Source: a bacterium (GTDB taxonomy: Bacteria > Patescibacteriota > Dojkabacteria > JAKAPS01 > JAJZLI01). Taken from it: a DNA stretch of 64,000 nucleotides. A program made the position numbers and the translations under genes. Where the stretch lies: assembly GCA_027459825.1 (NCBI GenBank), contig DAIDGT010000001.1:37884-101883 (forward strand). The letters are read 5' to 3'. Of this stretch, positions 20,085 through 59,976 are shown in pieces (the first letter of the stretch is position 1; every line of letters starts with the position of its first letter). The notes below the pieces were generated by a model. That model had not been told where the DNA came from. It made no database searches and worked only from the letters and a program-made list of their open reading frames with translations.

Positions 20085-20095
20085 AAAATATTATA

Positions 20096-25893: not shown

Positions 25894-25933
25894 AACCTAC
25901 AAAAATCACCAGATAATATCACGCAATATAAGG

Positions 25934-26182: not shown

Positions 26183-26247
26183 AGGTATATGCTATATAAA
26201 TTAAATACTGAAAAAAGTTTATCAATTTCATTTAACAATATCAAATT

Positions 26248-30621: not shown

Positions 30622-31890
30622 TTGTTTTTGAAAGATATTAACTATAATATGTATATTATGGAGCAGTATAATTACGAAATAACCAACCCAAACGGAAAGA
30701 TAGAAAAAGGTACAATATCCGCATCAACAAGAGAGGAAGCATACAAAATACTTCATGACCAAGGAAATACTGTTTTAAATATAGAAGTTACAAAAGGAAC
30801 AAAAACTGCGTCCAAAGGCACAAAAGTAAATACACTAGAATTAATAATATTTTTCGACCACATGCAAAAAATGATAGACGCAGGGTTATCTCTTTCAGAT
30901 ACCCTAACTGCATTAGTTGATGATGCACAGACCCCATCATTTAAGAATGTAATAATGGAGTTAAAACATGAAGTTGAAACAGGGAACAAACTATCTATAG
31001 GACTTCAAAAGTATCCTAAAACATTTTCACATGTAGTTACAAAAATGATAGAAGTTGGAGAGACAAGCGGAACATTATCAGAAAGTGCAAAAATGGTAAA
31101 AGATGACCTACAAAAAAGTTATGATTTAAAGAAAAAAGTTAGAGGAGCGATGCTTTACCCATTAATCATTGGATCAGTCATGCTTATTGTAGGCATTGGC
31201 CTTGTTATATTTGTATTTCCTCAACTAGGAACTATATTTGCAACATCAGGACTCAAACTCCCCCTACCAACTCGTATAATGCTTGGAATATCAAAATTAC
31301 TTACCACAAAAGCATACATAGGTGTACCATCACTTATAGCAATTATTATAATAGTCAAGTTATTAATAGCAAAACCATATTTCAAGCTTTTATGGAACAG
31401 AATGTCAATTAGATTACCCATACTTGGGCCAATTATAAGAAATATAAGTATTGCAACATTTTCAAGAACTTTTGGACATCTAATACAAAGCGGAATACAA
31501 ATTAATCAAGCAGTAGAAATTACAAAAGATTCAATGACAAATGAAGAATACAAAATGGTAATTGAAGAATTATCAAAAGAAATTCAAAAGGGAGCACCTA
31601 TATCATCAACACTAGAAAAGTATCCGAAGCTTTTCCCTCCCATCTCTGTACGTATGATAGCCGTAGGAGACAAGACAGGAAACACTGCAGAAATGCTAAA
31701 TTCAGTTGCGGTTTTTTACCAGACACAAGTAGACGATACTTTAGATAACCTTTCTACCATAATTGAACCAATAATGCTTTTCATAATGGGTGGAGGAGTA
31801 TTGCTGATTGCTCTATCCGTAATAATGCCAATTTATCAAATGACTGGATCTATAAATGCAAACACTGGATCGACACAAACTGGGGGATAA
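30622..31890 (+). CDS. pilC: type IV pilus inner-membrane platform protein PilC (GspF family)
   Basis: Two repeated T2SSF domains separated by TM helices. Confidence 0.9.
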   Translation: MFLKDINYNMYIMEQYNYEITNPNGKIEKGTISASTREEAYKILHDQGNTVLNIEVTKGTKTASKGTKVNTLELIIFFDHMQKMIDAGLSLSDTLTALVDDAQTPSFKNVIMELKHEVETGNKLSIGLQKYPKTFSHVVTKMIEVGETSGTLSESAKMVKDDLQKSYDLKKKVRGAMLYPLIIGSVMLIVGIGLVIFVFPQLGTIFATSGLKLPLPTRIMLGISKLLTTKAYIGVPSLIAIIIIVKLLIAKPYFKLLWNRMSIRLPILGPIIRNISIATFSRTFGHLIQSGIQINQAVEITKDSMTNEEYKMVIEELSKEIQKGAPISSTLEKYPKLFPPISVRMIAVGDKTGNTAEMLNSVAVFYQTQVDDTLDNLSTIIEPIMLFIMGGGVLLIALSVIMPIYQMTGSINANTGSTQTGG

Positions 31891-31894
31891 AAAT

Positions 31895-32341
31895 ATGAAA
31901 GAAGGATTTACTCTTATAGAAATAATACTTGCAATAACTATAGTTGCAATATTAATGCTAGGAGCATTTTTTTCCTATGTGACATTATATTCTCATTCAA
32001 ATGTAGCCAGCGGAATACAAATAGTTGAATATGCGGTAAAACAAGCACAAGATGATGCAATTGATGAATATAAAGGATACTCTGAATATGGAGTATACTT
32101 TGATAACAATACTGTGACAATATTTCCCGGAACAACATACACTCAAGGATCTTCAACAAATGTAGTATATGCATTACCTTTTGCAATAGAAATTACAAAT
32201 ATAAATCCCACAGACCATAATCCAATAATATTTGACGGGGTTAATGGTCAATTAGGAAATGATGGATTATCAGTAACAATAGGAAATTCAAACTTTGTAA
32301 ATACTATAAGTATAAACCAAAATGGAGCAATCTCTCAATAA
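31895..32341 (+). CDS. type IV prepilin (class III signal peptide MKEG|FTLIEI)
   Basis: GGGGGA Shine-Dalgarno-like element 7 nt upstream of the ATG at 31895. Canonical G-1, F+1, E+5 and a hydrophobic helix. The six-frame ORF starts earlier, at 31856. Confidence 0.75.
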   Translation: MKEGFTLIEIILAITIVAILMLGAFFSYVTLYSHSNVASGIQIVEYAVKQAQDDAIDEYKGYSEYGVYFDNNTVTIFPGTTYTQGSSTNVVYALPFAIEITNINPTDHNPIIFDGVNGQLGNDGLSVTIGNSNFVNTISINQNGAISQ

Positions 32342-32819
32342 CAATAAAGGACAAGTCCTTATAGACTTGATACTAGCAGTCATGGTACTAGGTATTATAA
32401 GCGTAATAGCATTAAACTTATTATCTTCCCTATCAAAGTCAATAGAGATAGCAAAACAAAAGCTTGAGGCCAAATACTTACTACAACAAGAAATGGAGAG
32501 CTTATATGCTATAGAATACCAATCTTGGTCATACTTACAAAATGGAGAATACTATTTATCATATAATTCAGTAAATAATCCCCCATCACAAATCCAAGGA
32601 TGGTATTTAACCTTGGGGTCTCAAACATATAATGAATATACAGAATATATAACAATCTCCCCTGCCTATAGACAAGATGCAAATACACTAACAACAGATT
32701 CTTCCTACCCCAATGATACAAATACAAAAGAGGTAACAGCAACAGTATCATTTAAATCATTTGGAAAAACATATACATACAATGACAGTGAATACTTTAC
32801 TAATTGGCAACAATTTTAA
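32322..32819 (+). CDS. pilin-like protein (degenerate prepilin N-terminus KG|QVLIDLILAV)
   Basis: Hydrophobic N-terminal helix with D at +5, inside a tandem pilin gene array. Confidence 0.4.
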   Translation: MEQSLNNNKGQVLIDLILAVMVLGIISVIALNLLSSLSKSIEIAKQKLEAKYLLQQEMESLYAIEYQSWSYLQNGEYYLSYNSVNNPPSQIQGWYLTLGSQTYNEYTEYITISPAYRQDANTLTTDSSYPNDTNTKEVTATVSFKSFGKTYTYNDSEYFTNWQQF

Positions 32820-33313
32820 TGAGAAATATTGAAGGATATACATTAATAGAAATTATAATTTACATAGCAATACTTTCTGTTGTTCTTGTTATTATAACAA
32901 TAATTATTATAATGATACTCCAAACACAAAATAAAATTATCACAATAGCAAATGCAAATGAAACAACAAGAATAGCCCTTAAAGAGATAACTCAAAATAT
33001 TGAAGATGGATATCAGGTAGAATCTCCAAACCCAGGGTCAACACAATCAGATAAATTAACGGTAGAAACTGACTCCACTGGAGATACCATAAGTTTCTAC
33101 ACTCAAAATGGAATTATTTACTCAAAATACAATGACAATACCCCAATACAAGTATCTTCTTCAAATATTTTTACGTATAATCTGTCCTTTCAGGAAGAAG
33201 CAAACACGGGGATGTCTCCTACTATATTTATAACACTTACAGAGAAAAATGTAGGTTCTACGGGACAACAAACATCAAAAACATATGAAACTACTGCAAC
33301 ACAAAGGAGATAA
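32819..33313 (+). CDS. type IV prepilin (MRNIEG|YTLIEI)
   Basis: ATG at 32819 overlaps the upstream stop (TAATG). G-1, E+5 and a hydrophobic helix. Confidence 0.7.
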   Translation: MRNIEGYTLIEIIIYIAILSVVLVIITIIIIMILQTQNKIITIANANETTRIALKEITQNIEDGYQVESPNPGSTQSDKLTVETDSTGDTISFYTQNGIIYSKYNDNTPIQVSSSNIFTYNLSFQEEANTGMSPTIFITLTEKNVGSTGQQTSKTYETTATQRR

Positions 33314-34703
33314 CAACAAAGGTCAAACAGCTATAATTGCAGCTGTAATAATTATGGCAATAATGCTTACTGCCATAACAACAATAGGTTATGTAGTATT
33401 AGGAGAATATAAACTATCTCAAAATGACGTTCTTGCATCTCAAACAAGATATTTTGCAGAATCTGGAATAGAAAATGCTCTCTTACAAATAGGTCAAAAT
33501 TCTTCCTACACTGGAGGATCATTTGTATCTCCAATTAATTCTCAAATAAACGGAACAGACAGTGTAACAGTCTCATATAATACTACAGACAATCCAGAAC
33601 AGGCTACAATTACCTCAGATGCAACAGTATATCAACAAGGAACATCAAATGTATTGTACACAAAGACAATACAAGTTGTTGCATCTTTGGGAACAATTCC
33701 ACAAATAGATAATTATGCTATTTTTGCAAACAACTATATATATGGAACACAATTTACAATAAACGGAGATGTGCAATCAAACAATTTACTTTATCTCCAA
33801 AACGGAACAATAAATGCACAAAATATCAATGCAGTAGGTCAAGGAGGAGGAGCATTTAATAATATTGATGGTATGACAATAAATAATAATGGAGGAGTGG
33901 TAAATCTTAATGGAAATTATATATTATCTTTCATCAATGATACTAATATAACAGGAGAATTAGGATGTGGAACAGCATTTTGGGGAGGATCATCTTGCAT
34001 AGTCACAAACAGCACAATAGGAAGCCAATCACAAGTTAGCGCACCACCACCAATTACACTACCAACTTTTGATACATCAACATGGGAAACATATGCACAA
34101 AACCATGGCACATTCTTTAGTAGTACACCCTCATTTTATGCATACCTTGAAAATTATTCATCCATATCAGATGGAATTGATACACTATCACCCCCAGCAG
34201 GGGTATATTACATAGATGCAAATATAAATGAACAGACACTTCCTTCACAGGACAGTCAAGGGAACTATATAACATATAATTTTACGGGATCCACAATAAT
34301 AACTAAGGTCGCTTTCGGAATAACTGCAGGATATATACAAACCTCTCCATTCTTAGATAGTAGTACAGGAAAATACCTACCCGCAATAGTTACAGGAAAA
34401 CAAGGAATAGACATGGATCAACCAGGAGGAAACACAAATACACAAATCAACATTACAGGAATAATCTACTCTTTAGGACAGATATCAATTGGAGGGGTAG
34501 ATAATTATGTACAAAATTTTACAGGCACAGTAACCATAAATGGAGCCTTATGGTCAGGAAATGCAGTAACAATTAATGAAGCTGACGATGCACAATCAGC
34601 CCAACAAACAATATCTCTTGATTCAAATATAGTTAACAATACTGAAGGCTTTAACACAACACAAACGTCAACCCAAATAATATCCTGGAATGAAATTAAC
34701 TAA
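33285..34703 (+). CDS. large minor-pilin-like protein (N-terminal pilin-like helix, about 470 aa)
   Basis: N-terminal KG|QTAIIAAVIIMAI hydrophobic helix with no E+5, followed by a large Asn/Thr-rich extracellular region. Position suggests a tip or minor pilin. Confidence 0.4.
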   Translation: MKLLQHKGDNNKGQTAIIAAVIIMAIMLTAITTIGYVVLGEYKLSQNDVLASQTRYFAESGIENALLQIGQNSSYTGGSFVSPINSQINGTDSVTVSYNTTDNPEQATITSDATVYQQGTSNVLYTKTIQVVASLGTIPQIDNYAIFANNYIYGTQFTINGDVQSNNLLYLQNGTINAQNINAVGQGGGAFNNIDGMTINNNGGVVNLNGNYILSFINDTNITGELGCGTAFWGGSSCIVTNSTIGSQSQVSAPPPITLPTFDTSTWETYAQNHGTFFSSTPSFYAYLENYSSISDGIDTLSPPAGVYYIDANINEQTLPSQDSQGNYITYNFTGSTIITKVAFGITAGYIQTSPFLDSSTGKYLPAIVTGKQGIDMDQPGGNTNTQINITGIIYSLGQISIGGVDNYVQNFTGTVTINGALWSGNAVTINEADDAQSAQQTISLDSNIVNNTEGFNTTQTSTQIISWNEIN

Positions 34704-34734: not shown

Positions 34735-37700
34735 ATGTATTACATGTTACGCAAGAGTAGGATCAGTTTTGATATTTTAAAAAAATTTTTCATTTCAAAA
34801 GTCAAAATATCGAGAAATAAGCTTAATAAATTTATAGTAATAGCTATACTTATCGGTGTATTAATAGGCATATATACTATTGCAAGTGGTATATTTACAA
34901 AAATATTCGCAACCTCACAGGGATCAATCACATACAATAGTGCATCACAATTTAGTAATGGAACTCTTACATCTACCCAGATTAATGGATCTTCTGTTGA
35001 ATTAGGACCAGGAAATGGAGGTTATGACAATACAAGTTACTTCTCCCAAATCACTTTAGATAACACAACTCCATATGCAACAATGTCTGATTATATAATC
35101 TCACTAAGTGTAAATACTCAAAGTCTAATATCTAACGGATACATGCAATCTACCTGTAACGATATAAGATTCCTTGATTCTGATAATAGTACACCTCTTA
35201 ACTACAACATAATATCAGGATGTAACAGTACAAACACAATAATATATGTAGAAATTCCTGAGTCAATAGCATCAAGTTCGTCAAAAACTATATATATGTA
35301 CTATGGAAATTCATCTCTCGCATCTGGAGCAGATATATCTCTACCGCCAGGGGATCCAACATTAGAAGCAGACTCTTTACATGAAATAGATCAACCCCAA
35401 GTACTACCTTATGCCTTTTATGACCCATCTACGAGTATATATACATATTTTGTAGTAGCAAATGGGACACCAACATATACAGGAGGAACAAGCGTATCTA
35501 TAACAGCAGTACATCCAGGATCTGCAGCATATGATTATTACTATGTAACATCTTCTTCAGAGCTAACAACCCTTAATGGAGTCAGTAGTTTTGTATATAG
35601 AGAAGCCACAGTATTTCAAGCAAACACATGGTGGTCTTCTCAAACAGTATTATCAATTCCAACAGGATACAGTCAAGTTATGGCTATGGGAGTAACTGAA
35701 GATTTGGGAATTTCTTTATGGGAGACAATAGTCGATAGTAACACTTATGGATATTCTGCAAATGTTTCTATGCATGAAACACTTACGGATATAAGTCCAA
35801 CAACTACTCACTCAGTTAAAGTTACATATTCATCAGGTTGCTGCGGAATTGAATTTGCATTTGCAGCAGCATATTATGAACCAACAATAACTATAGGAGC
35901 ACAACAAAATGCCTTTGCCACGACAGGAACATGGATATCACCTGCAATAAATACAATATGGAATGGTGGTTGGGGCGATGGGTCTACTACCACAAGCACT
36001 GCTTTTACTGCTACTGTTGCCAACACATCTTCTTCTCAAACTGTAGACGTGAAGATTAGATCAGCTTCTTCTTCCTCTGCCCTCTCCTCTGCTACATACT
36101 ATGATCTAGGTACCATATCTTCTGGAACTTCATTCTCTGTTGACCAATCTACATTCACGTCTCTTGGTGTTCCCGCCGATCAATATATTCAAATAGAATT
36201 GACTCTTAGTCAATCTGACTATGCTACTCCTTCTTTGAGTAGCTTCACAATATACTACGCTCAGGACAATACTCCTCCTGAGACAAACGCATCTAACATT
36301 GCTATGCAAACTCAAGCTTCTGGGGGACTAAACATTCCTGCTTCGGGATGGGACAACTCTTCTACTCCATACTTCTCATGGAATGCAGGATATGATTCTC
36401 AATCTGGTATCAAGGGATACTGCCTATACATAGGAACAAGTTCTTCTGGAAACCCTGCAACTTCTGAAGGATTACTAGGAACTTCCCCTGTTACAATACA
36501 AAATGGAGTTTGTCAGTTTGTAGTATCTACAAATTATGTTGATTTATCAAATCTATCTTACCAAGGATCTACATGGTTAACTTCATCTACTTCACCTTAC
36601 TACCTTAATGTATCTGCTATTGATAATATGAACAATGTTGATACATCTCCTGTTTCTTTTGAATTCTACTTTGACAATACTCCTCCTTTAAATGTCGCAT
36701 ACATATCATGTCCTAATGAAAACTTCTCCAATGTGTCTGACATGTCTTTTGCTTGGCCATCATCTGGAACAGACTCTTCATCTGATGCTATCTCTGGTGT
36801 ACTAGGGTGGCAATATCAAATTAACTCTACATCTGGTACATGGAAGGGTACTAATACTGATTCAACTCTTGGGATAACATACATTCCATACACATCATCA
36901 TCATACAAACTAACAGACGCTCAGGATGGATCATCAATATCTCCAGGACAGAATATTGTGTACTTCAGAACTGTTAATAACTCAGGAGTTGCATCCATAT
37001 CTTCTACATACAGAACATGTAACCTTGATTATCAGGGAGCTGCCCCTGTCTTTGCTTCAGGATCTAGTGTAACAGTATTACCTTCTACATCTACAACTAA
37101 CAGTTTTGCTATCTCATGGCCTACTGCTACTGCAACATCTGGACAAAGTGTAGCTCACTACTACTACATGATTAATACTCCTCCACCTTCTCTGTTATCT
37201 ACCTTGCAAGATAACCCTGGAACATATATTGACAACGGAGATAGCACTTCTATCCCTACAACAGCACTCGCTAACGTTGGAAAGGGTGTTAATACAATAT
37301 ATGTGGTTGCTATTGATAACAGTAATCCTCCAAATTACTCTCCTTCAAACGACATTACAGGATCATTTACTCTAAACTCAACAAACCCTGATCCTGTTGG
37401 GAATTTGATTGCTACAGACTCATCTATTAAAGCACAACAAAAGTGGAATGTTACTCTAACATGGACAGCTCCTGCTTATCAAGGTGCAGGAAATCTACAA
37501 TACCTGATATACAGATCTTCAAACAATGTGAACTTTTCTAATGTTGGTTCAACTACAGGATTATCATACGTTGATAATACTCCACTGTCTGCTCTGTACT
37601 ACTACTATGTTGTTGCAGAGGATGGTGCTAGAGCTATGAGTTCTAACTCCCTTACCGTATCAATTACCCCTACAGGAAGGTACACCACTCCCGCAAATTT

Positions 37701-38925
37701 GGAGACTGGACCTACCGTCACTGCAATATCAGATAACTCTGCCACAATATCGTGGTCTACTGACAGAAACTCTGATTCAAAGATCGAATATGGAACATCT
37801 TCTGGAACATATTACACTACAGAACCTTATGTACCTGCGCAGGTAACAGCTCATGTGATAGTGCTAACTAACCTGTCACCTTCAACAACCTACTATTACA
37901 AGGCATTATGGACAGATACTGATGGTAATACAGGATCATCAACAGAGAGTACATTCACTACAAATCCTCCGCCTGAGGTTAGTAATGTATCGGTTAACAA
38001 TGTAGGATTACATAGCGCATACATTTCATTCGCAATTTCAAATGCTGTACAGGCTCAGATTCAATATGGAACTACTAACTCTTTCGGCGGAAATGTTATA
38101 GTTGATACTTCACCAAATGAAAGTCCATATTCAGTACCTCTCACAAACCTTGCTTCAGGTACTAGGTACTACTACAGGGTAGTTATGTCAGATCCTAGTG
38201 GAGAAAGTTTTAATAGTGATACATATGATAATCTGATAACTCTACCACAACCAACAATTTCCAATATAGAAATTGATGCTATAGCAAACTCACCAGAACC
38301 AGGAGTCCTAATACAATGGAATACAAATACAGCAATGTCATCTGTAATATCGTATTGGCAAGGAAACAATACTGGCAATCCAACAGTAATTGCAAATACA
38401 AAATTAACCACAGGCAAACACCAAGTAGCAATAACACCACTTAATGCAAAAACAGTCTATAGCTTAATAATAAAAGGAGATGATGCTTATGGAAACCAGG
38501 CAGTATCGGATACACAAACCTTTACATCTGCTACAGATACAGTTCCTCCAACCATAACCAATATAACTGTACAAAGTCAAATTATGTCAGGGGCATCCGG
38601 AAACAAATCACAAATTATCGTGTCATGGACTACTGATAAACCTGCTACTTCTCAAGTTGAATTTAATCAGGGAGCTGGAGGAACATATTCACAGAAAAGT
38701 TCTGAAGATAGTCACTATGTACTAAATCACATCGTAGTCATATCAAACCTACCTACTTCTACTGTATATCACCTTAAAGCTATATCTAATGACGAAAGTG
38801 GAAATACTGGATACTCCTCTGATAATATTACTATTACTCCTCAGGCTACCGAAAGTGCTCTAAACCTGGTACTTGGTAATCTTGAGCAAGTTTTTGGATT
38901 TTTAGGGAATTTAAATGTGCCATAA
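34735..38925 (+). CDS. giant surface protein A (signal anchor, DUF2341-like domain, unique beta-rich module, Fn3-like repeats, conserved C-terminal tag)
   Basis: 1396 aa. N-terminal TM, then DIRFLDSDNSTPLNY...IYMYYGN (DUF2341-like), multiple WSTDRNSDSKIEYG...TTYYYKA repeats (Fn3/purple-acid-phosphatase-N-like), and the C-terminus ITITPQATESALNLVLGNLEQVFGFLGNLNV. Confidence 0.7.
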   Translation: MYYMLRKSRISFDILKKFFISKVKISRNKLNKFIVIAILIGVLIGIYTIASGIFTKIFATSQGSITYNSASQFSNGTLTSTQINGSSVELGPGNGGYDNTSYFSQITLDNTTPYATMSDYIISLSVNTQSLISNGYMQSTCNDIRFLDSDNSTPLNYNIISGCNSTNTIIYVEIPESIASSSSKTIYMYYGNSSLASGADISLPPGDPTLEADSLHEIDQPQVLPYAFYDPSTSIYTYFVVANGTPTYTGGTSVSITAVHPGSAAYDYYYVTSSSELTTLNGVSSFVYREATVFQANTWWSSQTVLSIPTGYSQVMAMGVTEDLGISLWETIVDSNTYGYSANVSMHETLTDISPTTTHSVKVTYSSGCCGIEFAFAAAYYEPTITIGAQQNAFATTGTWISPAINTIWNGGWGDGSTTTSTAFTATVANTSSSQTVDVKIRSASSSSALSSATYYDLGTISSGTSFSVDQSTFTSLGVPADQYIQIELTLSQSDYATPSLSSFTIYYAQDNTPPETNASNIAMQTQASGGLNIPASGWDNSSTPYFSWNAGYDSQSGIKGYCLYIGTSSSGNPATSEGLLGTSPVTIQNGVCQFVVSTNYVDLSNLSYQGSTWLTSSTSPYYLNVSAIDNMNNVDTSPVSFEFYFDNTPPLNVAYISCPNENFSNVSDMSFAWPSSGTDSSSDAISGVLGWQYQINSTSGTWKGTNTDSTLGITYIPYTSSSYKLTDAQDGSSISPGQNIVYFRTVNNSGVASISSTYRTCNLDYQGAAPVFASGSSVTVLPSTSTTNSFAISWPTATATSGQSVAHYYYMINTPPPSLLSTLQDNPGTYIDNGDSTSIPTTALANVGKGVNTIYVVAIDNSNPPNYSPSNDITGSFTLNSTNPDPVGNLIATDSSIKAQQKWNVTLTWTAPAYQGAGNLQYLIYRSSNNVNFSNVGSTTGLSYVDNTPLSALYYYYVVAEDGARAMSSNSLTVSITPTGRYTTPANLETGPTVTAISDNSATISWSTDRNSDSKIEYGTSSGTYYTTEPYVPAQVTAHVIVLTNLSPSTTYYYKALWTDTDGNTGSSTESTFTTNPPPEVSNVSVNNVGLHSAYISFAISNAVQAQIQYGTTNSFGGNVIVDTSPNESPYSVPLTNLASGTRYYYRVVMSDPSGESFNSDTYDNLITLPQPTISNIEIDAIANSPEPGVLIQWNTNTAMSSVISYWQGNNTGNPTVIANTKLTTGKHQVAITPLNAKTVYSLIIKGDDAYGNQAVSDTQTFTSATDTVPPTITNITVQSQIMSGASGNKSQIIVSWTTDKPATSQVEFNQGAGGTYSQKSSEDSHYVLNHIVVISNLPTSTVYHLKAISNDESGNTGYSSDNITITPQATESALNLVLGNLEQVFGFLGNLNVP

Positions 38926-38934: not shown

Positions 38935-41900
38935 ATGCATAAATCTTATTTCTATCAAAAATTAAATCGTATTAGATTTAATATAATTGCAATATTGATA
39001 TTCGTGATAGGAATAATAATAGGTTCATATTTAACAATATCAAAAATTATTCCAACGATATTTGCTACGTCACAAACATCAATAAGCTACAGTACTGATA
39101 CTCAGTTTAATACAGGAACTATGTCTTCAACACAAGTATCAGGAAGTGGTAGCTCTGCAGTAGTAGAACTTAATGGGGGGTCTACAACTCCAGCCTGGTA
39201 TAATATAAATTGGAATTATAGACAAGAAATTACAATTAATTACACTCAAGTAACTTCTAGCCAAACAAATTTTCCAGTTCTAATAAGTATAAACTCAGAT
39301 ACAAGCCTTGCGACATATGCCCAATCAAACGGTAATGATATATTATTTACTTCAGATGACGGAATAACTAAGTTAAATCATGAAATCGAACAATACAACA
39401 CATCCACTGGGCAACTAATTGCATGGGTAAATGTTCCTTCATTGTCCTCGTCAACAAATACTATTTTATATATGTATTATGGTAACTCAAATGCTTCAAA
39501 CCAACAAAATACAGCAGGGGTGTGGGACAGTAATTACTCTGGAATATGGCATTTACCAAATGGAACTAACCTTAGCGCAAATGATTCTACAAGTAATGCC
39601 AATAATGGAACAATTTATGGAGTAACACCGACAACAGGAAAAATTGGAGGTGCAGGATATTTTAATGGATCAAGTTACATAGAAGTCCCTAATTCCTCAA
39701 GCCTGCAAGTAGGAAAACCAGGATTTACTTTTGAAGCTTGGGTGAATCCAAATAATATATCCAATTGTGGTAGTTTTAATTGCATAATCTTTAATGAAGA
39801 AAATAGCTATGAATGGGCAATATCAAATAATGGACTCTTAGGTATTGCTATTGCAAATACTACTCCAGGGTGGAATTGGGTAAGTACAAGCCAAATTATA
39901 CCTACAAATCAATGGACAAACTTGGTAATAACATATGATGGGTCGTATATAAAAACATATATTAATGGGACTCTACAAAATACAATAACTGGAAGTGGAA
40001 ATTTAACAAGTGTAACAACTGCGTTAAGAATTGGGGCCAGAGGAGCACCAAGTAGTGCATTTGCTTTCTGGTATGGTTCACTTGATGAAATCCGTATATC
40101 TAGTATAGCTCGCTCTTCTTCTTGGATATCAACAGCATATAATAACGAGAATTCCCCTTCAAGTTTTTTTACCCTAGGGTCCCAAGAGACTTCAATTGCC
40201 ACATCAGGATATTGGGAATCTCCTTCTAACTCAAATACCATAGACCTTATTTGGAATGGTGGTTGGGGAGACGGCAGTAATGATACCTCAACTGCTTTTT
40301 CTGCAACAGTAGCATCAGTAAATACAAACCAAACAATAACATTTGAAATGAAGACAGCAACAAGCGAAGCAAATTTAAGCACATCTCCATATATTACTTT
40401 AGGAACAGTAAATTCGGGAACAACATTTACAACAACTGCAGCACAAATGAATTCCTTAGGATTATCTGCAGGAGACTACCGGTACCTACAAGTTGAGGCT
40501 ATATTCTCACAATCAACAGGAACATCTCCCCAACTTGATAATTTTACAATTTACTATACAAAAGATAATACTCCCCCAGAAACTAACGCATCTTCTATAC
40601 TAATGTATACTTCGAATGGAGGACGTAGCATTTCTCAATATGGATGGGATAATAGCTCTACACCATATTTTAGCTGGACAGCAGGAAGTGATTCTCAATC
40701 AGGAATGAAAGGATATTGTCTTTACTTAGGAACAAGTAACAGCACCATACCTTCTACTTCTTCTTCAGGAAACTTAAATCCAAATAATTCCCCTATTTCT
40801 GCCAGTGGCACCGGATGTGAAGGAGGAAATGGATTTATAACATCATCTACATCAATAGACCTCTCTACTTCTGGGTACCTACAAACCCAACTCACAACAT
40901 CAACTTCTCCATACTATCTAGGTGTAGCAGCAGTAGATAATGAAGGAAATATAGATTCAAATTTTGTATACTTTACATTCTATTTTGACAATACAATCCC
41001 AAATAACGTATCCTATATATCATGCCCTGGAGGAAACTTTTCCAATGTCACTAATATGAGTTTTTCATGGCCGACAAGTGGAAGTAATGCATCATCCTCA
41101 ATAGCAGCTCCTATACTTGGGTGGCAATACCAAATTAACTCTACTTCAGGGACATGGAATGGACCTAATTACAATTCAAGCCTTAGTGTGAACTATATAC
41201 CATCAACGAATTCATCATATACACTAACATCATCGGACAGCTCATCTATAATAGTAGGTGATAATATAATCTACTTTAGAACCATAGATGAAGCAGGAAA
41301 TATATCCTCTTACAGAACATGCTCAATTGCATATGGAGGACAGGCACCTATATTTCCAATAGGTGGACAAGTACTGGTAACACCCAACACCTCAAACACC
41401 AATACATTCTCTCTATCATGGCCATCAGCAACAGCAACAACGGGACAAACTGTCGCTGATTACTATTATATGGTTAATAATACACCACCATCGTCCCTTG
41501 CAACCCTTCAGGAAAATGGAGGAAAGTATATAAATAATGGAACTTCAACTGAGGTATCTGCAACTGTTCTTTCAAATGCAGTTAAAGGAACAAATACAGT
41601 ATATGTTGTGGCAATAGATAATTCTGCTACCCCAAACTACTCCCCATCTAATTATATATCAGGAACATTTACTCTAAATTCCAATAACCCAGATCCTGTA
41701 TCAAATTTAGTAGCAACAGATTCCTCCATTAAGGTAAAATCTCAATGGAATGTAACACTTACATGGTCTGCTCCTTCATATCAGGGAGCAGGAAATCTCA
41801 CTTACCTGATTTATAGATCAACCAATGATATCAATTTTACAGAAGTAGGAACAACTATAGGGCTCTCATATGTAGACAACACTCCAGAATCAACTCTGTA

Positions 41901-43206
41901 TTATTACTACATAATAACCCAAGATGGAGCAAGTGAGTTAAGTGATCAATCAACAACAGTATCAATTACTCCAACAGGAAGATATACAAGTCCAGCAAGT
42001 ATAGAAACTACCCCCACAGTAACCAACATAACGGATAATTCAGCAACCATATCATGGTCTACTGATAGAAACTCTGATTCTAAAATTGAGTATGGGAAAT
42101 CTTCAGGAAACTACTATACAACAGAGCCATACGTTCCTACTCAAGTTACAGAGCATGTAGTCACACTAACTAATCTATCTCCATCCACAACATATTACTA
42201 TAAAGCTATATGGACAGATTCAGATGGTAATACAGGAACATCAACAGAAAGTACATTCACCACTAATCCACCTCCTGAGGTTAGTGATGTTTCTGTGAGT
42301 AATATAACATTGAATAGTGCATATATTTCATTTAGTATTTCTAATGCTGTTGTTGCACAAATCCAGTATGGACCAACAACATCGTTTGGAGGAAGTATTC
42401 CATTAACTACATCTCCAAATAAAAGTCCATATACCGAACCAATAACAGGATTATCTTCAGGAACCCAGTATTATTATAGAATAGCAATGACAGACCCTAC
42501 AGGAAATATATACTATTCTGATACATATAATAATCTAATAACCCCGCCTACCCCAGAAATTTCAAAAATAGAAATATCTGCTGTATCAAATTCTCCAGAA
42601 ATAGACGTATTTGTACAATGGAGTACTAATACAGCAACTTCATCTGTCATCTCCTATGGAGGAAAAACTCAAGTAGATGAAAATTTCATATCAGGAGAGC
42701 ATCAAGCAATTATTACAAATCTTTCATCTAATACAAAATATAGTTTAACAATAAAAGTAATAGATAAATATGGAAACCAAGTTACATCTTCTCCTCAAAT
42801 ATTCACAACAGGAATAAATAAAGTTCCCCCTAAAATAGTCAGTTTAAATATACAAACACAATTGATGAAATCATCTTCAGGAAATACACAAATTATAATA
42901 TCATGGACAACTGACAAACCATCTACATCTCAAGTTGAGTACGGGGAGGGAACAGGAACAACATATTCTCAAAAAAGTACAGAGGACAATCATTATGTAA
43001 TTAATCATGTAGTGGTAATCTCTAACCTTCCAACAGCAAGAATATATCATATAAAAGCTATATCAGTTGATAGTAATGGAAATGTAGGTTATTCTTCTGA
43101 TAATATTACTATTACTCCACAGGCTACCGAGAGTGCTCTAAACCTTGTGCTCGGTAATCTTGAGCAAGTTTTTGGATTTTTAGGAAATTTAAATGTATCA
43201 TATTAG
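38935..43206 (+). CDS. giant surface protein B (signal anchor, DUF2341-like, LamG_3 lectin-like domain, Fn3-like repeats, same C-terminal tag)
   Basis: 1423 aa, paralog of protein A. It contains a concanavalin-like LamG_3 region ending in the typical GSLDEIRIS motif that protein A lacks. The C-terminal 30 aa are identical to A. Confidence 0.7.
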   Translation: MHKSYFYQKLNRIRFNIIAILIFVIGIIIGSYLTISKIIPTIFATSQTSISYSTDTQFNTGTMSSTQVSGSGSSAVVELNGGSTTPAWYNINWNYRQEITINYTQVTSSQTNFPVLISINSDTSLATYAQSNGNDILFTSDDGITKLNHEIEQYNTSTGQLIAWVNVPSLSSSTNTILYMYYGNSNASNQQNTAGVWDSNYSGIWHLPNGTNLSANDSTSNANNGTIYGVTPTTGKIGGAGYFNGSSYIEVPNSSSLQVGKPGFTFEAWVNPNNISNCGSFNCIIFNEENSYEWAISNNGLLGIAIANTTPGWNWVSTSQIIPTNQWTNLVITYDGSYIKTYINGTLQNTITGSGNLTSVTTALRIGARGAPSSAFAFWYGSLDEIRISSIARSSSWISTAYNNENSPSSFFTLGSQETSIATSGYWESPSNSNTIDLIWNGGWGDGSNDTSTAFSATVASVNTNQTITFEMKTATSEANLSTSPYITLGTVNSGTTFTTTAAQMNSLGLSAGDYRYLQVEAIFSQSTGTSPQLDNFTIYYTKDNTPPETNASSILMYTSNGGRSISQYGWDNSSTPYFSWTAGSDSQSGMKGYCLYLGTSNSTIPSTSSSGNLNPNNSPISASGTGCEGGNGFITSSTSIDLSTSGYLQTQLTTSTSPYYLGVAAVDNEGNIDSNFVYFTFYFDNTIPNNVSYISCPGGNFSNVTNMSFSWPTSGSNASSSIAAPILGWQYQINSTSGTWNGPNYNSSLSVNYIPSTNSSYTLTSSDSSSIIVGDNIIYFRTIDEAGNISSYRTCSIAYGGQAPIFPIGGQVLVTPNTSNTNTFSLSWPSATATTGQTVADYYYMVNNTPPSSLATLQENGGKYINNGTSTEVSATVLSNAVKGTNTVYVVAIDNSATPNYSPSNYISGTFTLNSNNPDPVSNLVATDSSIKVKSQWNVTLTWSAPSYQGAGNLTYLIYRSTNDINFTEVGTTIGLSYVDNTPESTLYYYYIITQDGASELSDQSTTVSITPTGRYTSPASIETTPTVTNITDNSATISWSTDRNSDSKIEYGKSSGNYYTTEPYVPTQVTEHVVTLTNLSPSTTYYYKAIWTDSDGNTGTSTESTFTTNPPPEVSDVSVSNITLNSAYISFSISNAVVAQIQYGPTTSFGGSIPLTTSPNKSPYTEPITGLSSGTQYYYRIAMTDPTGNIYYSDTYNNLITPPTPEISKIEISAVSNSPEIDVFVQWSTNTATSSVISYGGKTQVDENFISGEHQAIITNLSSNTKYSLTIKVIDKYGNQVTSSPQIFTTGINKVPPKIVSLNIQTQLMKSSSGNTQIIISWTTDKPSTSQVEYGEGTGTTYSQKSTEDNHYVINHVVVISNLPTARIYHIKAISVDSNGNVGYSSDNITITPQATESALNLVLGNLEQVFGFLGNLNVSY

Positions 43207-43215: not shown

Positions 43216-45780
43216 ATGGGAGATCAAGTAATTATAAATTTAGAACATGTTTCAAAATCTTTTGATAGTGCAGAAAGACAAATACCTGTATTGAAAGATA
43301 TGTCACTATCAATATACAAAGGGGATTTTGCCATCATACTAGGACCTTCAGGGTCAGGAAAATCTACTCTACTTCATACTCTGTTAGGACTAGAGGCACC
43401 AACAACAGGAAAAGTGGAACTATTAAACCAAAACATATATGAAAACTGGGATGAAGATAAAAGATCAGAGTTTAGGAAAAGATATATTGGAATGGTATAC
43501 CAACAATCAAATTGGATACAATCATTATCTGTAATTGACAATATAACCTTCCCGCTATTACTACTTGGAGTGGATAAGGATACAGCAAGACAAAGAGGGA
43601 TGGAACTTCTACAAAACATATCAATGGAAAAATGGGCAGATTTCTCTCCATCAGAACTTTCATCAGGAGAACAACAAAAAATTGCACTTATGAGAGCAAT
43701 AATTACTGATCCCGATATAATAGTTGCAGATGAGCCAACAGGAAATCTTGACTATCAATCAGGAGAAGAATTAATGGAGCTTCTCCAAATGTTCAATAGT
43801 AAAGGAAAAACAGTAATTATGGTTACTCACGACTTAGCATATATAAAATATGCTAAGAGAACAATAAAGATATTTGATGGTGTAATTATGGGTATGTTCC
43901 AAAGGAATATAGCGCAAGAAGAAGAGGCTATGAGAGAGTCTAAAAGAAAAGGGAGTGAAGAATCACAACAACTGGAACAGGGAAGTAGACATATAAAGGT
44001 ACAAGACTTTAAAGAGGAACATATTCCTGAAAAGTACGCGTCACTAGAAGAGCCTACACCAAACTTATTAAAAAGGATATTTCAATTTATACTAACAATT
44101 GTTGTGTGTATATTTGTAGTAGTGATAAATATACTTATATATATTCTAAACTTGCCATTGAGATTATTTCGCTCACATAAACTGATAAAGTCCATAAAAG
44201 TAGACATGAAGTACATAACAGATGGAATACTACAAGGAGCATCATTCTTAATTATGCTATTCTTCTCAATAATTAATATTACTATAAGAGCTATACTATC
44301 TATAAAAATACTAAAGTATATAGGAGCAAACCAAATACAATACATCAGAAAGCAAATATCTAACGGAATAAAATTTATATTTGACAGAAAAGTATCGGGA
44401 AAGATAGGGAGAGAGACAGTAATAAACCTTTCTTACAGTAATTTACATGCAAAAAAATCAAGAACATTTGTAACAATCGGAGGCATAATGATAGGTGTAG
44501 GAATGATTGTTTTCTTAGTATCACTAGGATATGGACTGCAATCTCTGGTTATTTCAAGAGTTGCAAAACTGGGAGCAATTAAAGAAGCAAGTGTTTCAAT
44601 ACAAACAGGAAGTAAATTACAAATTAATGACAATACCTTGTATAAATTAAAATCCATCCCAAATGTTACTGAAGTCTACCCTATTATATCTGTCGTTGGA
44701 AAAGTTATTTACAATAATTCAAATTCTGATATGGCAGTATATGGAGTAACAACAGGATACTTACAATCTCTGAGTATTAATCCTATCAAGGGAAATTTCT
44801 TTAATAATAATAATCTAACAAATAAGCTTCCAATAGAAACCCAGCAACAATCAAACCAACAAGGAAGCAGTACTACATCAAATAGCACTTCTGGAAACCA
44901 AACAGGAAACGGATCTCTTCCTTTTATAAATGTACCTTCTCTTTCTACTCCAGTACAAACACCAAAAACAACACTGGTGTCTTTACTATCATCATCAAAT
45001 GATACAGTAGTAAATCAGGCAATGTTAACTGAACTTGGGATACCAGAGCAGCAAGCAATAGGAAAAACATTCCAATCATCCTTCATAGTAACATCTAACC
45101 TTTTAAACAATACAAATCAGTCAATACAAACAAAGCCTATTACATTTAAAATAGTAGGAATACTACCAGGGACATCCACTCCTGATATATATGTACCGTT
45201 TATAGATTTAAGGTCAATTGGTATAACAAATTATTCTCAACTTGAAGTTGTTGTAAATCAGGCAAATCAACTTGCATTAGTAAGGAAACAAATAGAATCA
45301 TACGGATATGCGACAACATCGGTTGCAGATACTGTGTCACAAATTAATGGAGTATTTAATACATTAAGAATAATATTGGCACTATTTGGATTTATTGCTT
45401 TAATTGTTGCAGCCTTAGGTATGCTTAATACATTAACAATATCACTTCTTGAGAGAACAAGAGAAGTTGGTTTAATGAAAGCTCTTGGAATGCAATCAAA
45501 TGAAGTAATGGAATTATTCTTAACAGAATCAATGGTTATGTCTGTATTGGGAGGAATTCTAGGTATAGTATTTGGTTATGTTATAGGTAAAATATTAAGT
45601 ATATTGCTATCAATAATATCTATATCAAAAGGAGGGGGATATATAAATATATCTACAATTCCATGGAGCATGATTATTGTAGTCATAATTCTATCAGTAA
45701 TAGTGGGAGGAATAACAGGAATATACCCTGCAGCAAGAACACGAAGAATATCTGCATTGAATGCATTAAGATATGAATAA
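43216..45780 (+). CDS. MacB-type fused ABC transporter (N-terminal ATPase plus C-terminal FtsX-like permease)
   Basis: Walker A GPSGSGKSTLL, ABC signature LSSGEQQ, Walker B IIVADEPTGNLD, then TM helices, a large extracytoplasmic region and an FtsX-like 4-TM C-terminus. Confidence 0.8.
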   Translation: MGDQVIINLEHVSKSFDSAERQIPVLKDMSLSIYKGDFAIILGPSGSGKSTLLHTLLGLEAPTTGKVELLNQNIYENWDEDKRSEFRKRYIGMVYQQSNWIQSLSVIDNITFPLLLLGVDKDTARQRGMELLQNISMEKWADFSPSELSSGEQQKIALMRAIITDPDIIVADEPTGNLDYQSGEELMELLQMFNSKGKTVIMVTHDLAYIKYAKRTIKIFDGVIMGMFQRNIAQEEEAMRESKRKGSEESQQLEQGSRHIKVQDFKEEHIPEKYASLEEPTPNLLKRIFQFILTIVVCIFVVVINILIYILNLPLRLFRSHKLIKSIKVDMKYITDGILQGASFLIMLFFSIINITIRAILSIKILKYIGANQIQYIRKQISNGIKFIFDRKVSGKIGRETVINLSYSNLHAKKSRTFVTIGGIMIGVGMIVFLVSLGYGLQSLVISRVAKLGAIKEASVSIQTGSKLQINDNTLYKLKSIPNVTEVYPIISVVGKVIYNNSNSDMAVYGVTTGYLQSLSINPIKGNFFNNNNLTNKLPIETQQQSNQQGSSTTSNSTSGNQTGNGSLPFINVPSLSTPVQTPKTTLVSLLSSSNDTVVNQAMLTELGIPEQQAIGKTFQSSFIVTSNLLNNTNQSIQTKPITFKIVGILPGTSTPDIYVPFIDLRSIGITNYSQLEVVVNQANQLALVRKQIESYGYATTSVADTVSQINGVFNTLRIILALFGFIALIVAALGMLNTLTISLLERTREVGLMKALGMQSNEVMELFLTESMVMSVLGGILGIVFGYVIGKILSILLSIISISKGGGYINISTIPWSMIIVVIILSVIVGGITGIYPAARTRRISALNALRYE

Positions 45781-45924: not shown

Positions 45925-47544
45925 ATGGATAATCTGCTTCGAAATATTATCTCAAGAGAAAAAGTATTTGGGATAGACATTACAAACTCATCCATTCGTA
46001 TAATACAATTTGAAACAAAAAAGGACTATTTTGTACTAAAAAGTATAGCAGAAGAAGAAATACCTATTACCTCATTTGTAGCAGGAGTAATAAGACAAAA
46101 AGACATTGTTGCGCAAAAATTAATAGATTCAATAGAAAAAGCATATCCTAAAAGAATTACAACGAAATTTGCAGTAGTGCTATTACCAGATGATCAAATA
46201 TATACCCAGATAATAAAACTACCAAAGGTAGAGAAAAATAAAATAGAAAAAGCAATAGCCTTTCAGCTCTCTTCTTTCATACCGATGAAAGAAGATGAAG
46301 TTTACTGGGATTTTGCAATACTATCAGAAGATACAAATAACTATGAAATCATTATAAATGCAGTAGGAAAAGAAAGCGCAGATTCATTTATAGAAACATT
46401 AAATATTGCAGGTATCACCCCGCTTGTATTTGAAAGTAGATCACAAGCAGCATTAAGAGCAATCAAGGGGCATAATAAAACAGAAGAAGAGTATATGTTA
46501 ATAGACATTGGGAAGAGTATTACTAATATTGCCATCACAAAGAAGGATGCTATACAATTTTCATCCTCAGTTTTCTTTGGTGTAAATCAAATTATAAAAG
46601 TAATAGGAGAATACAATAAAATTAATGATGACAAAATAAAAGAGATACTAGAGAAAAATGGAGTGGCATCTGAAGATACTGAATTACAAAAACATATTGA
46701 TACTCTATTTATACAACCTATGCAGGAAATGCAAAAAGCAATTAACTATTATGGAGAAGAAAAGATATCAAAAGTATATCTGTATGGCGATGGAGCTCAA
46801 TTAAAAGGAGTGCTTGATAAATTCCAATCACAAACTAGTGTAAAAACAGAAATTGCGGGTATTGATATAAAAATATATCCGATACTACAGTGGGAAAAAC
46901 ATGAAAAAATTTCTCCATATATTTCAATTATAGGAATTGAAATGATAAATAAGATAAAAAATCTTATTTATATAAATATTCTACCTAAAAAACAAAAAAG
47001 CATCGGAGTAAGTAAATATATAAAGAAACAAACATTAGGACTATTAAAATTTATTTTAATAGATCTTGTTATACTTTCTGTAGGGATGCTTTATCTAAGT
47101 TATCAAAATACACAATCTATGCAGAATATACAAAATGCAATACAAACCTATATACAGGCAAACAATAACCCTAGATACAAAGGACTGAATACAAAAATAA
47201 ATACACTGAATACAGAACTTTCAAATTTATCTAACGCATACAAGACACAATACATGTGGTCAAAAACAATAGAAGAGATTTCAAATCTAATACCTTCAGG
47301 AGTAACATTAAACCAATTTAAAGTACAAAATACTGCAAAAACACAAAGTAGCTCAACAGTATCAGTAAACCCTGTATGGCAGATTACACTTGGAGGAATA
47401 GCGCAAACAGGATCACTAGTAGTCAATCTTGCAAATACACTTGAAAAAGAAAAAGGGATATCAAATGTAGAAATGCCTATTTCTAATTTTCAATCTAGCC
47501 AGAATACAAACTTTACTATAACATTTAATATTACCCCACAATGA
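45925..47544 (+). CDS. PilM-PilN fusion protein (actin-like ATPase fold plus inner-membrane PilN segment)
   Basis: N-terminus VFGIDITNSSIRIIQFE is the PilM actin-like start. After about 340 aa there is an INILPKKQK motif (the PilN INLLP-type motif), followed by a TM helix and a periplasmic domain. Confidence 0.6.
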   Translation: MDNLLRNIISREKVFGIDITNSSIRIIQFETKKDYFVLKSIAEEEIPITSFVAGVIRQKDIVAQKLIDSIEKAYPKRITTKFAVVLLPDDQIYTQIIKLPKVEKNKIEKAIAFQLSSFIPMKEDEVYWDFAILSEDTNNYEIIINAVGKESADSFIETLNIAGITPLVFESRSQAALRAIKGHNKTEEEYMLIDIGKSITNIAITKKDAIQFSSSVFFGVNQIIKVIGEYNKINDDKIKEILEKNGVASEDTELQKHIDTLFIQPMQEMQKAINYYGEEKISKVYLYGDGAQLKGVLDKFQSQTSVKTEIAGIDIKIYPILQWEKHEKISPYISIIGIEMINKIKNLIYINILPKKQKSIGVSKYIKKQTLGLLKFILIDLVILSVGMLYLSYQNTQSMQNIQNAIQTYIQANNNPRYKGLNTKINTLNTELSNLSNAYKTQYMWSKTIEEISNLIPSGVTLNQFKVQNTAKTQSSSTVSVNPVWQITLGGIAQTGSLVVNLANTLEKEKGISNVEMPISNFQSSQNTNFTITFNITPQ

Positions 47545-48083
47545 AAAGAAAAAATATAAAAACATATATAATCTTTACTGTATTTATAATATCTATTATA
47601 TATTTGACCTATTTTTCTTACTCAAAATACACAAAATCCACAAAACAGAAAGTAGAATTACAAAATACTCTCACTATTTTACAAGCTAAACAAGTACAGG
47701 ATATACAGGTATTAAAAGAGTATAATACATACTTTCCAGGTATTAGTGATATACAAAATACAATAGTAACAAACAACTCCCTACTTAACTGGGTAAATCA
47801 AGAAAACTTAGTTGCATCAATTACAGGGAATGCAAACACAATAGAATTTCAAAATGCCACAGTTACTCAAAATAATATACAAATAAACGGGAATACATCA
47901 ACCGCTCCAATTCAAGACCTAATTGTTAATATTAACCTTCAAGGAAATTTTCAACAGTTAGTAAACTTTCTTGCAATGATGGAAAATTCATATTATTTCA
48001 CAAATGTAACATCAATTGCCTCCCAAACTGAAAATTCAGGAGCTCTTAATACATCAATAACATTAGAACTACACATATCATGA
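47541..48083 (+). CDS. PilO-like protein
   Basis: N-terminal TM helix, coiled coil, then a periplasmic domain. Translationally coupled (ATGA) to pilMN. Confidence 0.4.
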   Translation: MKRKNIKTYIIFTVFIISIIYLTYFSYSKYTKSTKQKVELQNTLTILQAKQVQDIQVLKEYNTYFPGISDIQNTIVTNNSLLNWVNQENLVASITGNANTIEFQNATVTQNNIQINGNTSTAPIQDLIVNINLQGNFQQLVNFLAMMENSYYFTNVTSIASQTENSGALNTSITLELHIS

Positions 48084-59971: not shown

Positions 59972-59976
59972 GAAAA

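Follow-up and report, generated by a model that had tools for sequence, protein, structure and literature searches.

The window analysed here is a stretch of 64,000 nucleotides from a Dojkabacteria (Patescibacteriota) genome assembly (GCA_027459825.1, contig DAIDGT010000001.1, positions 37,884 to 101,883), in which two giant tandem genes, called A and B below, end in almost the same DNA and in the same peptide. I found that this C-terminal tail is a previously unannotated module which occurs throughout the phylum and always lies at the extreme C-terminus. The module consists of a T-P-[KQR] linker and an amphipathic helix of about 18 residues with an invariant Asn and an invariant Phe-Gly-[Phe/Trp], followed by 0-8 residues and the stop codon. 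The gene that carries it is almost always accompanied by genes for a MacB-type ATP-binding cassette (ABC) transporter. On this genomic evidence, there is about an even chance that the tail is a C-terminal docking or recognition helix for its cognate MacB-type transporter and that the identity of the DNA is secondary, having arisen via recombination.

Is this tail common in other bacteria? A query made of the last fibronectin type III (FN3) domain and the tail matched eight fragments, seven at 49-62% identity and one, P0001, at 96%, and the tail ends all eight. Among species-representative genomes (one genome per species), 172 loci were confirmed with tblastn; counts given below out of 80 refer to 80 of these 172, which are species-level loci of metagenome-assembled genomes (MAGs). 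A 31-position hidden Markov model (HMM) of the tail matches 79 of the 80 loci, each time at a distance of 0-6 residues from the stop codon of a large open reading frame (ORF). Thus, the further ORFs with this ending that an earlier note on this stretch had proposed to look for do exist beyond the window. They encode secreted FN3 proteins, typically of 1000-2700 amino acids (aa) where the contig holds them whole. In a profile search of 1.84 billion representatives, 1193 proteins were found at E ≤ 1e-10, FN3-only matches included. The tail lies at the extreme C-terminus in 102 of the 157 proteins examined and comes in two flavours. The type 1 tail reads TITPKAT[DE][NS]AL[ND]LV[IV]xNLxxxFGFLGG, with the core motif ITP[KQ]AT[DE][NS]AL[ND]LV-x-x-NL-x3-FGFLG. 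The type 2 tail is more distant and ends in FG[FW]: T[IL]LTP[QRK]xxx[SN][VI][LI][QD][LI]I[IVM]xN[FL]ExxFG[WF]x[KR]. Its motif is C-terminal in all 53 type 2 metagenome loci, and in many type 2 tails aromatic and basic residues follow the helix (FGWxKKxxR). The linker Pro, the Asn before the third hydrophobic pair and the Phe-Gly are near-invariant in both types. The linker I-T-P-K-A-T is conserved like the helix itself (Pro in 79 of 79 tails, Lys in 77).

Every informative record title among the 80 loci names a lineage of Patescibacteria or the Candidate Phyla Radiation (CPR), including Microgenomates, WWE3, WS6, and Shapiro-, Woese-, Collier-, Davies-, Roizman-, Beckwith-, Pace-, Nomura- and Saccharibacteria. 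About half of the records with the module are titled 'uncultured Gammaproteobacteria/Pseudomonadales/Bdellovibrionales' (L010, L011, L015, L017, L018 and others). Since L018 ('Pseudomonadales', isolate HK-STAS-PATE-16) matches L022 ('Woesebacteria') in both ORF coordinates and tail, such titles seem unreliable, and they look like taxonomy-mapping errors for Patescibacteria MAGs. One 4.4-kb contig (L006) is titled Omnitrophota. The source annotation of the tail-bearing proteins is only 'hypothetical' or 'fibronectin type III domain-containing', and the tail had no match in Pfam, NCBIfam or the PDB sequences, where the best E-value was 0.055 for a chance match to a viral fusion protein. A full-text literature search found no account of the tail or of the pairing of giant proteins with MacB in Patescibacteria. 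The literature holds general remarks on giant FN3/DUF2341 surface proteins (PMC11809585, PMC13059738).

What else do these loci share? Across the 80 loci, two families were found to be widely shared and no other: the giant gene itself (78 loci) and the MacB-type ATPase plus permease (74 loci). The MacB-type genes lie directly downstream of the tail gene in 63 of the 80. In 62 of the 79 measured loci, and also in L052, the transporter starts within 100 nt of the stop codon of the tail gene and often overlaps it. The gap is about 0.4-0.5 kb in four loci, while six have a sensor kinase and response regulators (2.5-3 kb) inserted before the transporter and one (L065) has a divergent transporter upstream. 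Five contigs end too early for the transporter, the same kinase following the tail gene in three of them, and in one locus (L005) the transporter is absent within 8 kb. The insertion, a PAS/HisKA sensor histidine kinase with one or two response regulators, stands between the tail gene and the MacB-type genes in L045, L047, L066, L069, L074 and L078; a kinase insertion was also noted for L032, L036 and L075. The inserted genes suggest that the module is regulated.

Arrays of two or three tail genes before a single transporter were found in the window and in L008, L064 and L102. In genomes with two loci, the giant gene, the ATPase and the permease have all been duplicated and have diverged (L028/L044, on one contig, 52-62% identity; L058/L065, 44-55%). 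Type 2 loci encode a 410-aa permease and an ATPase that is lengthened at its C-terminus by a soluble part of about 200 aa; these genes follow the tail gene in about 22 loci and directly precede it in five. In the window, the gene next to gene B encodes a MacB/FtsX (type VII) ABC transporter, as seen from its Pfam domains (ABC_tran, 9.1e-31; MacB_PCD, 8.3e-18; FtsX, 3.5e-19) and its transmembrane (TM) layout. Such a single-chain fusion is also found in L003, L011, L013, L020 and L034, and the genes are separate in most species. Across the 80 loci, there is no conserved neighbour that is a MacA/HlyD-type adaptor, an outer-membrane partner, a protease or a transpeptidase. These results uphold the proposed link between an undescribed tag at the C-terminus and the neighbouring MacB-type transporter, in that the motif is phylum-wide and always C-terminal and the transporter is its only conserved neighbour, with contact between tail and transporter being the part that is proposed rather than observed.

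In the window, the tail HMM scores 54 bits for each of genes A and B and 9.5 bits for the next best ORF, so no other ORF there has the tail. Over the DNA tract listed in Table 1 (offset +4278), A and B differ at 7 of 102 nt, the A/B mismatches being T/A, A/G, G/T, A/G, T/C, G/A and G/A. Since all 34 codons give the same amino acid, every mismatch is synonymous. The 32-mer GGTAATCTTGAGCAAGTTTTTGGATTTTTAGG has exactly two copies in the window, at 38875 and 43153. Both proteins end with ITITPQATESALNLVLGNLEQVFGFLGNLNV, followed by P and the stop codon in A or by SY and the stop codon in B. The near-identical gene ends, the shared 32-mer and the common peptide described in the earlier note are thus all real; its start for the gene B segment, 43098, is 2 nt off register. 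In a codon-aware alignment of A and B, identity peaks in the last window of 30 codons, at 97% for amino acids and 88% for nucleotides, while other windows of the 3′ half have 39-87% and 54-86%, respectively. Exact runs of more than 17 nt occur only in the tail (32 and 23 nt). The same codon is used at 27 of the 34 identical residues of the tail against 16.1 expected (P ~8.5e-5 by simulation, uncorrected), where the expectation comes from the residue-specific re-use rates in the remainder of the C-terminal 60% of the alignment. Among all sliding windows of the same size, the tail is the maximum for codon identity. Thus, the sliding-window comparison called for in the earlier note showed that conservation is uneven along the gene ends. 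The note had also spoken of extensive synonymous divergence upstream; the contrast is real but moderate rather than absolute, for the same-codon fraction of upstream windows ranges from 0.43 to 0.73 and these windows are not uniformly saturated.

A related metagenome contig, L081 (JGI sample 3300033990), which encodes P0001, was compared with A and B. Its first block is 61% identical to A and to B with mixed informative sites. Its second block is A-type (274 of 280 positions). Its third block is B-type (75 of 75) and continues so into the MacB gene (84 of 86). The change from A to B falls within the conserved tail DNA, somewhere from window position 38841 to 38853, as would be expected of a crossover between the A and B tails or of a conversion tract that ends there. 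Taken together, the excess of identical codons and the L081 switch support recombination at the tail, as the earlier note had suggested for the gene ends, and such recombination would therefore account for the local identity of the A and B DNA. L081 has a second breakpoint at about window position 38580, where identity changes from about 61% to both genes (alignment columns 1-170, about 38420-38580) to about 98% to A. The last FN3 domain therefore seems to be a mosaic block itself, which suggests that domain-level shuffling is frequent in the giant genes.

Could the identity of the tail DNA have arisen without recombination? Strong purifying selection on the peptide combined with biased codons at the G+C content of the window (31.5%) might suffice, since none of the seven mismatches alters the invariant peptide, same-codon fractions of 0.68-0.73 are found in other windows, and only 34 codons are concerned. 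However, the expectation of 16.1 is already conditioned on residue-specific codon re-use in the same pair of genes, and 27 were observed; no other window of the scan is as extreme as the tail, and the A-to-B switch of L081 falls inside the tract. I therefore consider this explanation rather unlikely.

With AlphaFold2, the last FN3 domain and the tail (127 aa, alignment of 70 sequences) were predicted as an FN3 sandwich at residues 1-98, with predicted local distance difference test (pLDDT) scores mostly above 90, then a linker, then a helix at residues 106-123 with pLDDT 57-68. At such scores, the placement of the helix on the FN3 domain is not confident. The helix is amphipathic, with a hydrophobic moment of 0.34-0.36 in the tail of gene A and 0.34-0.57 overall; the C-terminus of PBP5, scored likewise, gave 0.43-0.50. 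Since the mean Kyte-Doolittle hydropathy of the tail is 1.05, there is no TM segment in it.

The tail was also compared with known C-terminal signals. Neither A nor B has an LPXTG motif; the only TM-grade segment is N-terminal, and the proteins end in NLNVP or NLNVSY without basic residues. When A, B and the tail by itself were scanned against NCBIfam at E ≤ 1, no sorting signal was matched, the sole 'CTERM' entry being a sub-threshold match of the FN3 region to MXAN_2561 (27.9 bits against a cutoff of 150). The earlier note was right that the tail is not an LPXTG, PEP-CTERM or TM anchor, as the C-terminus contains no TM segment and matches nothing in NCBIfam or Pfam. The note had also mentioned a sortase. 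The sortase is present (11152-11901, +), but it is encoded 23 kb away and is unrelated to the tail, and a sortase substrate was rejected since the tail lacks LPXTG, a C-terminal TM segment and any model match. A signal for an exosortase, archaeosortase or rhombosortase (PEP-CTERM, PGF-CTERM, GlyGly-CTERM, MYXO-CTERM) was rejected for want of a model match and a TM helix. A type I secretion substrate was rejected as well: the neighbouring ABC protein is MacB-type, a HlyD-like gene is not a conserved neighbour, and the proteins begin with a hydrophobic segment and an AxA-like site. As for the C-terminal domain of type IX secretion (a beta-sandwich of 70-100 aa), only about 30 residues follow the last FN3 domain, in a predicted linker and a single predicted helix, and no such domain was matched in Pfam or NCBIfam.

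At the other end of the protein, members of the family start with what looks like a Sec signal peptide with a long n-region. In the window, a TM scan found a lone hydrophobic segment at aa 33-51 of A and at aa 17-35 of B. In type 1 proteins, the hydrophobic segment is followed by [IV]FA|[TAS], often with a Pro two residues upstream, as in gene B. Type 2 proteins have an A-A/S-A site followed by a conserved mature start, T[FY]TWTQxxWSGG. These motifs look like signal-peptidase I sites, though they are conserved more than is usual for such sites.

In 17 of the 80 loci, genes for bAvd (PF22296) and an RVT_1 reverse transcriptase lie directly upstream of the giant gene, the arrangement of a diversity-generating retroelement (DGR). 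Template and variable repeats were located in three of these loci (Table 1), and in L001 every displayed difference between template and variable repeat falls on an adenine of the template. The giant gene itself contains the variable repeat, which corresponds to about aa 380-460 and closes a domain resembling FGE-sulfatase and C-type lectins. Since this position is N-proximal, the hypervariable binding head would be there and the tail at the other end of the stalk.

How might the tail and the transporter work together? If the tail is a docking helix for the MacB-type transporter, the giant protein would be exported by Sec and probably cleaved at [IV]FA|[TAS], leaving a protein without a membrane segment. 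Its free C-terminal helix would dock on the extracytoplasmic domain of the cognate transporter. Docking would hold the cell-proximal end of the stalk, with the variable head (LamG here, a DGR-diversified lectin-like domain elsewhere) pointing outward, and ATP-driven mechanotransmission might then load, move or release the giant protein. Every member of a tandem array, such as A and B, would carry the tail because all are clients of one transporter. The constrained tail would also be a patch of homology where paralogs or alleles recombine by gene conversion or unequal crossover, and would therefore be kept homogenised.

The helix might instead anchor the protein on its own, as an amphipathic membrane anchor in the outer leaflet of the cytoplasmic membrane that needs no transporter, like that of PBP5 and PBP6. 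The hydrophobic moments are comparable, aromatic and basic residues follow the helix in many type 2 tails, and the helix is not packed on the FN3 domain. Generic membrane-binding helices keep hydrophobicity and not residue identity. In the tail, however, Asn16, Gly22, N/S8, N/D11 and TP[KQR] are near-invariant while the FN3 domains are only about 50% identical, and a membrane anchor leaves the strict adjacency and co-duplication with MacB unexplained. It seems an improbable function.

I give a similarly low probability to the possibility that the tail is an oligomerisation or nucleation helix which joins two or three stalks into a fibre, MacB being needed for something else, for instance to export a partner or to remodel the envelope. 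Oligomerisation via terminal elements is frequent among long FN3 fibres, and coiled coils typically have an Asn next to the hydrophobic face as a register-setting residue. The tail has a heptad-like a/d/e spacing (L-x2-V-I-x2-L-x2-A/V-F-x2-L) and an Asn beside its hydrophobic face. On the other hand, 18 residues are short for a stable coiled coil, the structure model is a monomer, the TP[KQR]xT linker and the terminal FG[FW] are more like a recognition peptide, and the synteny with MacB is again unexplained.

Still less probable is a sorting signal, analogous to those of sortases or exosortases, that is cut near T-P-[KQR] by an enzyme encoded elsewhere. Conservation of I-T-P-K-A-T to the degree seen in the helix is unusual for a spacer and would fit a cleavage site, and the window does encode a sortase; yet that gene is 23 kb away, type 1 tails have neither a TM helix nor a basic cluster nor a model match, and a protease or transpeptidase is not conserved next to the tail gene.

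The earlier note had also considered a constraint on the nucleotide level, such as an RNA element. The invariant residues of the 79 tails are encoded by all of their synonymous codons, six for Leu12 and four each for Ala9 and Pro3, for example. The 123-nt ends of A and B fold like their shuffles (z = -0.04 and +0.22), so the check for RNA secondary structure in the conserved segment gave nothing beyond shuffles, and an Rfam search of the tail DNA at E ≤ 1 gave no match. From the free use of synonymous codons across species and the folding z-scores near zero, it follows that the target of selection is the protein. The tail was rejected as a DGR variable region because the mismatches are not adenine-specific and the variable regions of the orthologues are N-proximal; no reverse transcriptase was found among the window ORFs scanned (most of 182-55074, with 24034-28503 and 55067-63796 outside the scan). 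An RNA or DNA element overlapping the coding end (mRNA structure, regulatory site or DGR variable region) thus has a negligible probability, even though nucleotide identity is locally in excess and DGRs accompany this gene family in other species, given the shuffle-like folding, the lack of an Rfam match, the free codons and a DGR region about 380-460 aa from the N-terminus.

Several observations weigh against a docking helix whose DNA identity is secondary. Adjacency and co-duplication tie the genes together functionally but do not tell which part of the giant protein matters. In about half of the type 2 loci, there is no MacB in the sequence at hand, the upstream side being mostly unobservable there. 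The extracytoplasmic domain of the transporter varies from about 225 aa in type 2 loci to about 425 aa in L014, a range that is not obviously expected of a receptor for a near-invariant peptide. The N-terminal hydrophobic segment is long enough for a stable anchor, and if it is one, the tail would lie at the distal end; cleavage is a prediction. With regard to recombination, the excess of identical codons is based on 34 codons, and L081 is a single metagenome contig of 1.4 kb that may be an assembly chimera joined at the shared stretch.

Genes A and B are paralogs with a common stalk and tail and differing heads (Table 1). The stalks are 50-87% identical. The heads are almost unrelated, with 7-28% identity over about aa 200-380 (35300-35900 vs 39500-40130), and the divergent region of about 200 aa holds LamG in B and no recognisable domain in A. 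Both genes sit within a type IV pilus cluster in the window. The pilin-like set at 31856-34703 was recognised from its matches in Pfam (N_methyl) and NCBIfam (ComGE-like and archaellin/pilin N-terminal domain) and from its N-termini. Two small membrane proteins without a family match (180 and 84 aa; 47541-48334), possibly PilO-like, follow the PilM-PilN fusion. Is the pilus the partner of the tail, as the earlier note had considered? Pilus genes do lie on both sides of the pair in the window, and L095, alone among the loci, has a PilM relative after MacB, but the association is not general: phmmer searches with the PilC, PilMN and pilins of the window, together with a regular expression for class III signals, found no type IV pilus genes in the flanks of the 80 genome loci.

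Far upstream in the window, the sortase gene adjoins a 516-aa ORF without a Pfam match (9553-11103, -), which may encode a sortase substrate and is unrelated to the tail. A set of genes resembling conjugation or type IV secretion systems extends over 11898-21601. It comprises VirB4/TraG-type P-loop ATPases at 11898-13520 and 17389-19401 (both on the - strand), a PrgI-family protein at 20096-21601 (-) and an AbiEii toxin gene at 16283-17329. VirB4/VirB6-like genes follow the MacB genes in L011, L020, L034 and L044.

Table 1. Positions of the features discussed in the text, in the window or in the locus named.
Feature	Sequence	Position	Strand	Description	Basis
PilC/T2SSF	window	30622-31890	+		Pfam T2SSF 2.7e-52
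Three pilin-like genes	window	31856-33313	+		Pfam N_methyl; NCBIfam ComGE-like and archaellin/pilin N-terminal domain; N-termini (jointly with the next row)
Pilin-like protein	window	33285-34703	+	472 aa	See previous row
Gene A	window	34735..38925	+	Giant secreted protein, 1396 aa: N-terminal signal/anchor, DUF2341, variable region, FN3-type (Pur_ac_phosph_N) stalk, C-terminal tail	ORF list, translation, Pfam
Hydrophobic segment and K-I-F-A|T motif of gene A	window	34831..34911	+	Predicted signal-peptidase I cleavage after Ala59	
Tail of gene A	window	38827..38922	+	Peptide ITITPQATESALNLVLGNLEQVFGFLGNLNVP; conserved TP-linker, then predicted amphipathic helix at about 38857-38910	Tail HMM, 54.4 bits
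DNA tract with raised synonymous identity	window	38818..38919 (A) vs 43096-43197 (B)	+	Putative gene-conversion/recombination tract; contains the 32-mer at 38875-38906	
Gene B	window	38935..43206	+	Tandem paralog of gene A, 1423 aa: N-terminal signal/anchor, DUF2341, LamG (aa 244-399), FN3-type stalk, C-terminal tail	ORF list, translation, Pfam, A/B alignment
Hydrophobic segment and P-T-I-F-A|T motif of gene B	window	38977..39066	+	Predicted cleavage after Ala44	
Tail of gene B	window	43105..43203	+	Same peptide, ending NVSY; predicted helix at about 43135-43188	Tail HMM, 54.5 bits; register from the 32-mer
Fused MacB-type ABC transporter	window	43216..45780	+	854 aa, starts 10 nt past the stop of gene B: ATPase, two extra TM helices (aa 292-310, 345-363), TM1, extracytoplasmic domain of about 280 aa, FtsX-type TM2-4	
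PilM-PilN fusion	window	45925..47544	+	539 aa, directly after the MacB-type gene	Pfam PilM_2 2.8e-26, PilN 1.9e-7
DGR locus with tail-bearing gene	L001	1446-4644		Template/variable repeats 1867-1985/4524-4644	Repeats 85-87% identical (range for the three loci)
DGR locus with tail-bearing gene	L014	1693-4775		Template/variable repeats 2083-2201/4657-4775	As above
DGR locus with tail-bearing gene	L044	1140-4665		Template/variable repeats 1589-1704/4550-4665	As above

Patescibacteria make up a large share of bacterial diversity; they are tiny, mostly uncultured and without an outer membrane, and most are thought to live attached to host cells. To my knowledge, there is no known route by which their giant surface proteins are displayed and no recognised anchor on these proteins. 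A near-invariant tag that is co-inherited with a dedicated MacB-type transporter is a testable candidate for the display or anchoring step, and the 31-position HMM can be used to find its client proteins in the genome of any CPR member. Diversification by DGRs makes several of these proteins likely host-recognition molecules. Recombination at the tail suggests how adhesin repertoires may be reshuffled while the anchoring end is kept constant. If docking is true, mechanotransmission of the MacB/FtsEX kind would extend from small molecules, lipoproteins and hydrolase regulators to giant adhesins, and the tag would be useful for engineered surface display in the few culturable CPR strains. I put forward, tentatively and with some doubt, that the tail and its MacB partner are an unrecognised surface-display or secretion system of Patescibacteria, in which a type VII ABC transporter would read the C-terminal helix, TP[KQR]-x3-[SN]-hhxhhh-x-N-h-x3-FG[FW], and anchor, extend or release giant Sec-exported adhesins. 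If so, the transporter would be the machinery by which ultrasmall episymbionts present host-binding proteins, some of them DGR-diversified, and the conserved tail DNA would double as a recombination joint for swapping adhesin cassettes.

How does this pair compare with known systems? Like the signals of sortases, exosortases, archaeosortases and rhombosortases, the tail is short and conserved and forms the very end of many surface proteins. Those signals have three parts (a motif, then a TM helix, then a basic tail) and are cleaved by a dedicated transpeptidase, whereas the tail has no TM helix, no model match and no such enzyme as a conserved neighbour. PBP5 and PBP6 are likewise exported by Sec and have a C-terminal amphipathic helix of similar hydrophobic moment. 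Their anchors are weakly conserved and have no dedicated partner gene, while the tail has invariant polar and Gly residues and a co-inherited transporter. The RTX adhesins of type I secretion (LapA, SiiE) are giant repeat-rich surface proteins with an uncleaved C-terminal signal and a dedicated adjacent ABC protein, as proposed here. In contrast, type I systems use a HlyB-type ABC protein with a membrane fusion protein and an outer-membrane protein, no Sec signal and a poorly conserved C-terminal signal, where the present loci have a MacB-type ABC protein, Sec-like N-termini and an almost invariant tail.

MacAB-TolC and LolCDE act from the periplasmic side on substrates that Sec has already taken across the membrane. 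Their transporters belong to the same superfamily as the one described here, and the giant proteins have Sec-type N-termini. Those systems handle small toxins, lipoproteins and drugs rather than giant proteins, while here no MacA/HlyD adaptor or outer-membrane partner is conserved and recognition would be by a C-terminal peptide. In FtsEX, which acts with EnvC, PcsB, CwlO or RipC, an ABC ATPase works with a permease of the FtsX/MacB fold, the extracytoplasmic domain of which binds a helical part of the secreted partner, and ATP hydrolysis is transmitted outward without any substrate being moved across the membrane. The transporter of the present loci has ABC_tran, MacB_PCD and FtsX domains and its candidate partner ends in a predicted exposed helix; the genetic linkage of the two is conserved across the 80 loci, and binding would follow by analogy. 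The partners of FtsEX differ in being regulators of peptidoglycan hydrolases with long coiled-coil hairpins, whereas the candidates here are FN3 proteins of 1000-2700 aa with a single C-terminal helix of 18 residues and with several clients per array. By analogy, the mechanotransmission pair of the FtsEX/MacB kind appears to be closest in its way of working, and the giant adhesins with a dedicated ABC protein appear to be closest in gene organisation.

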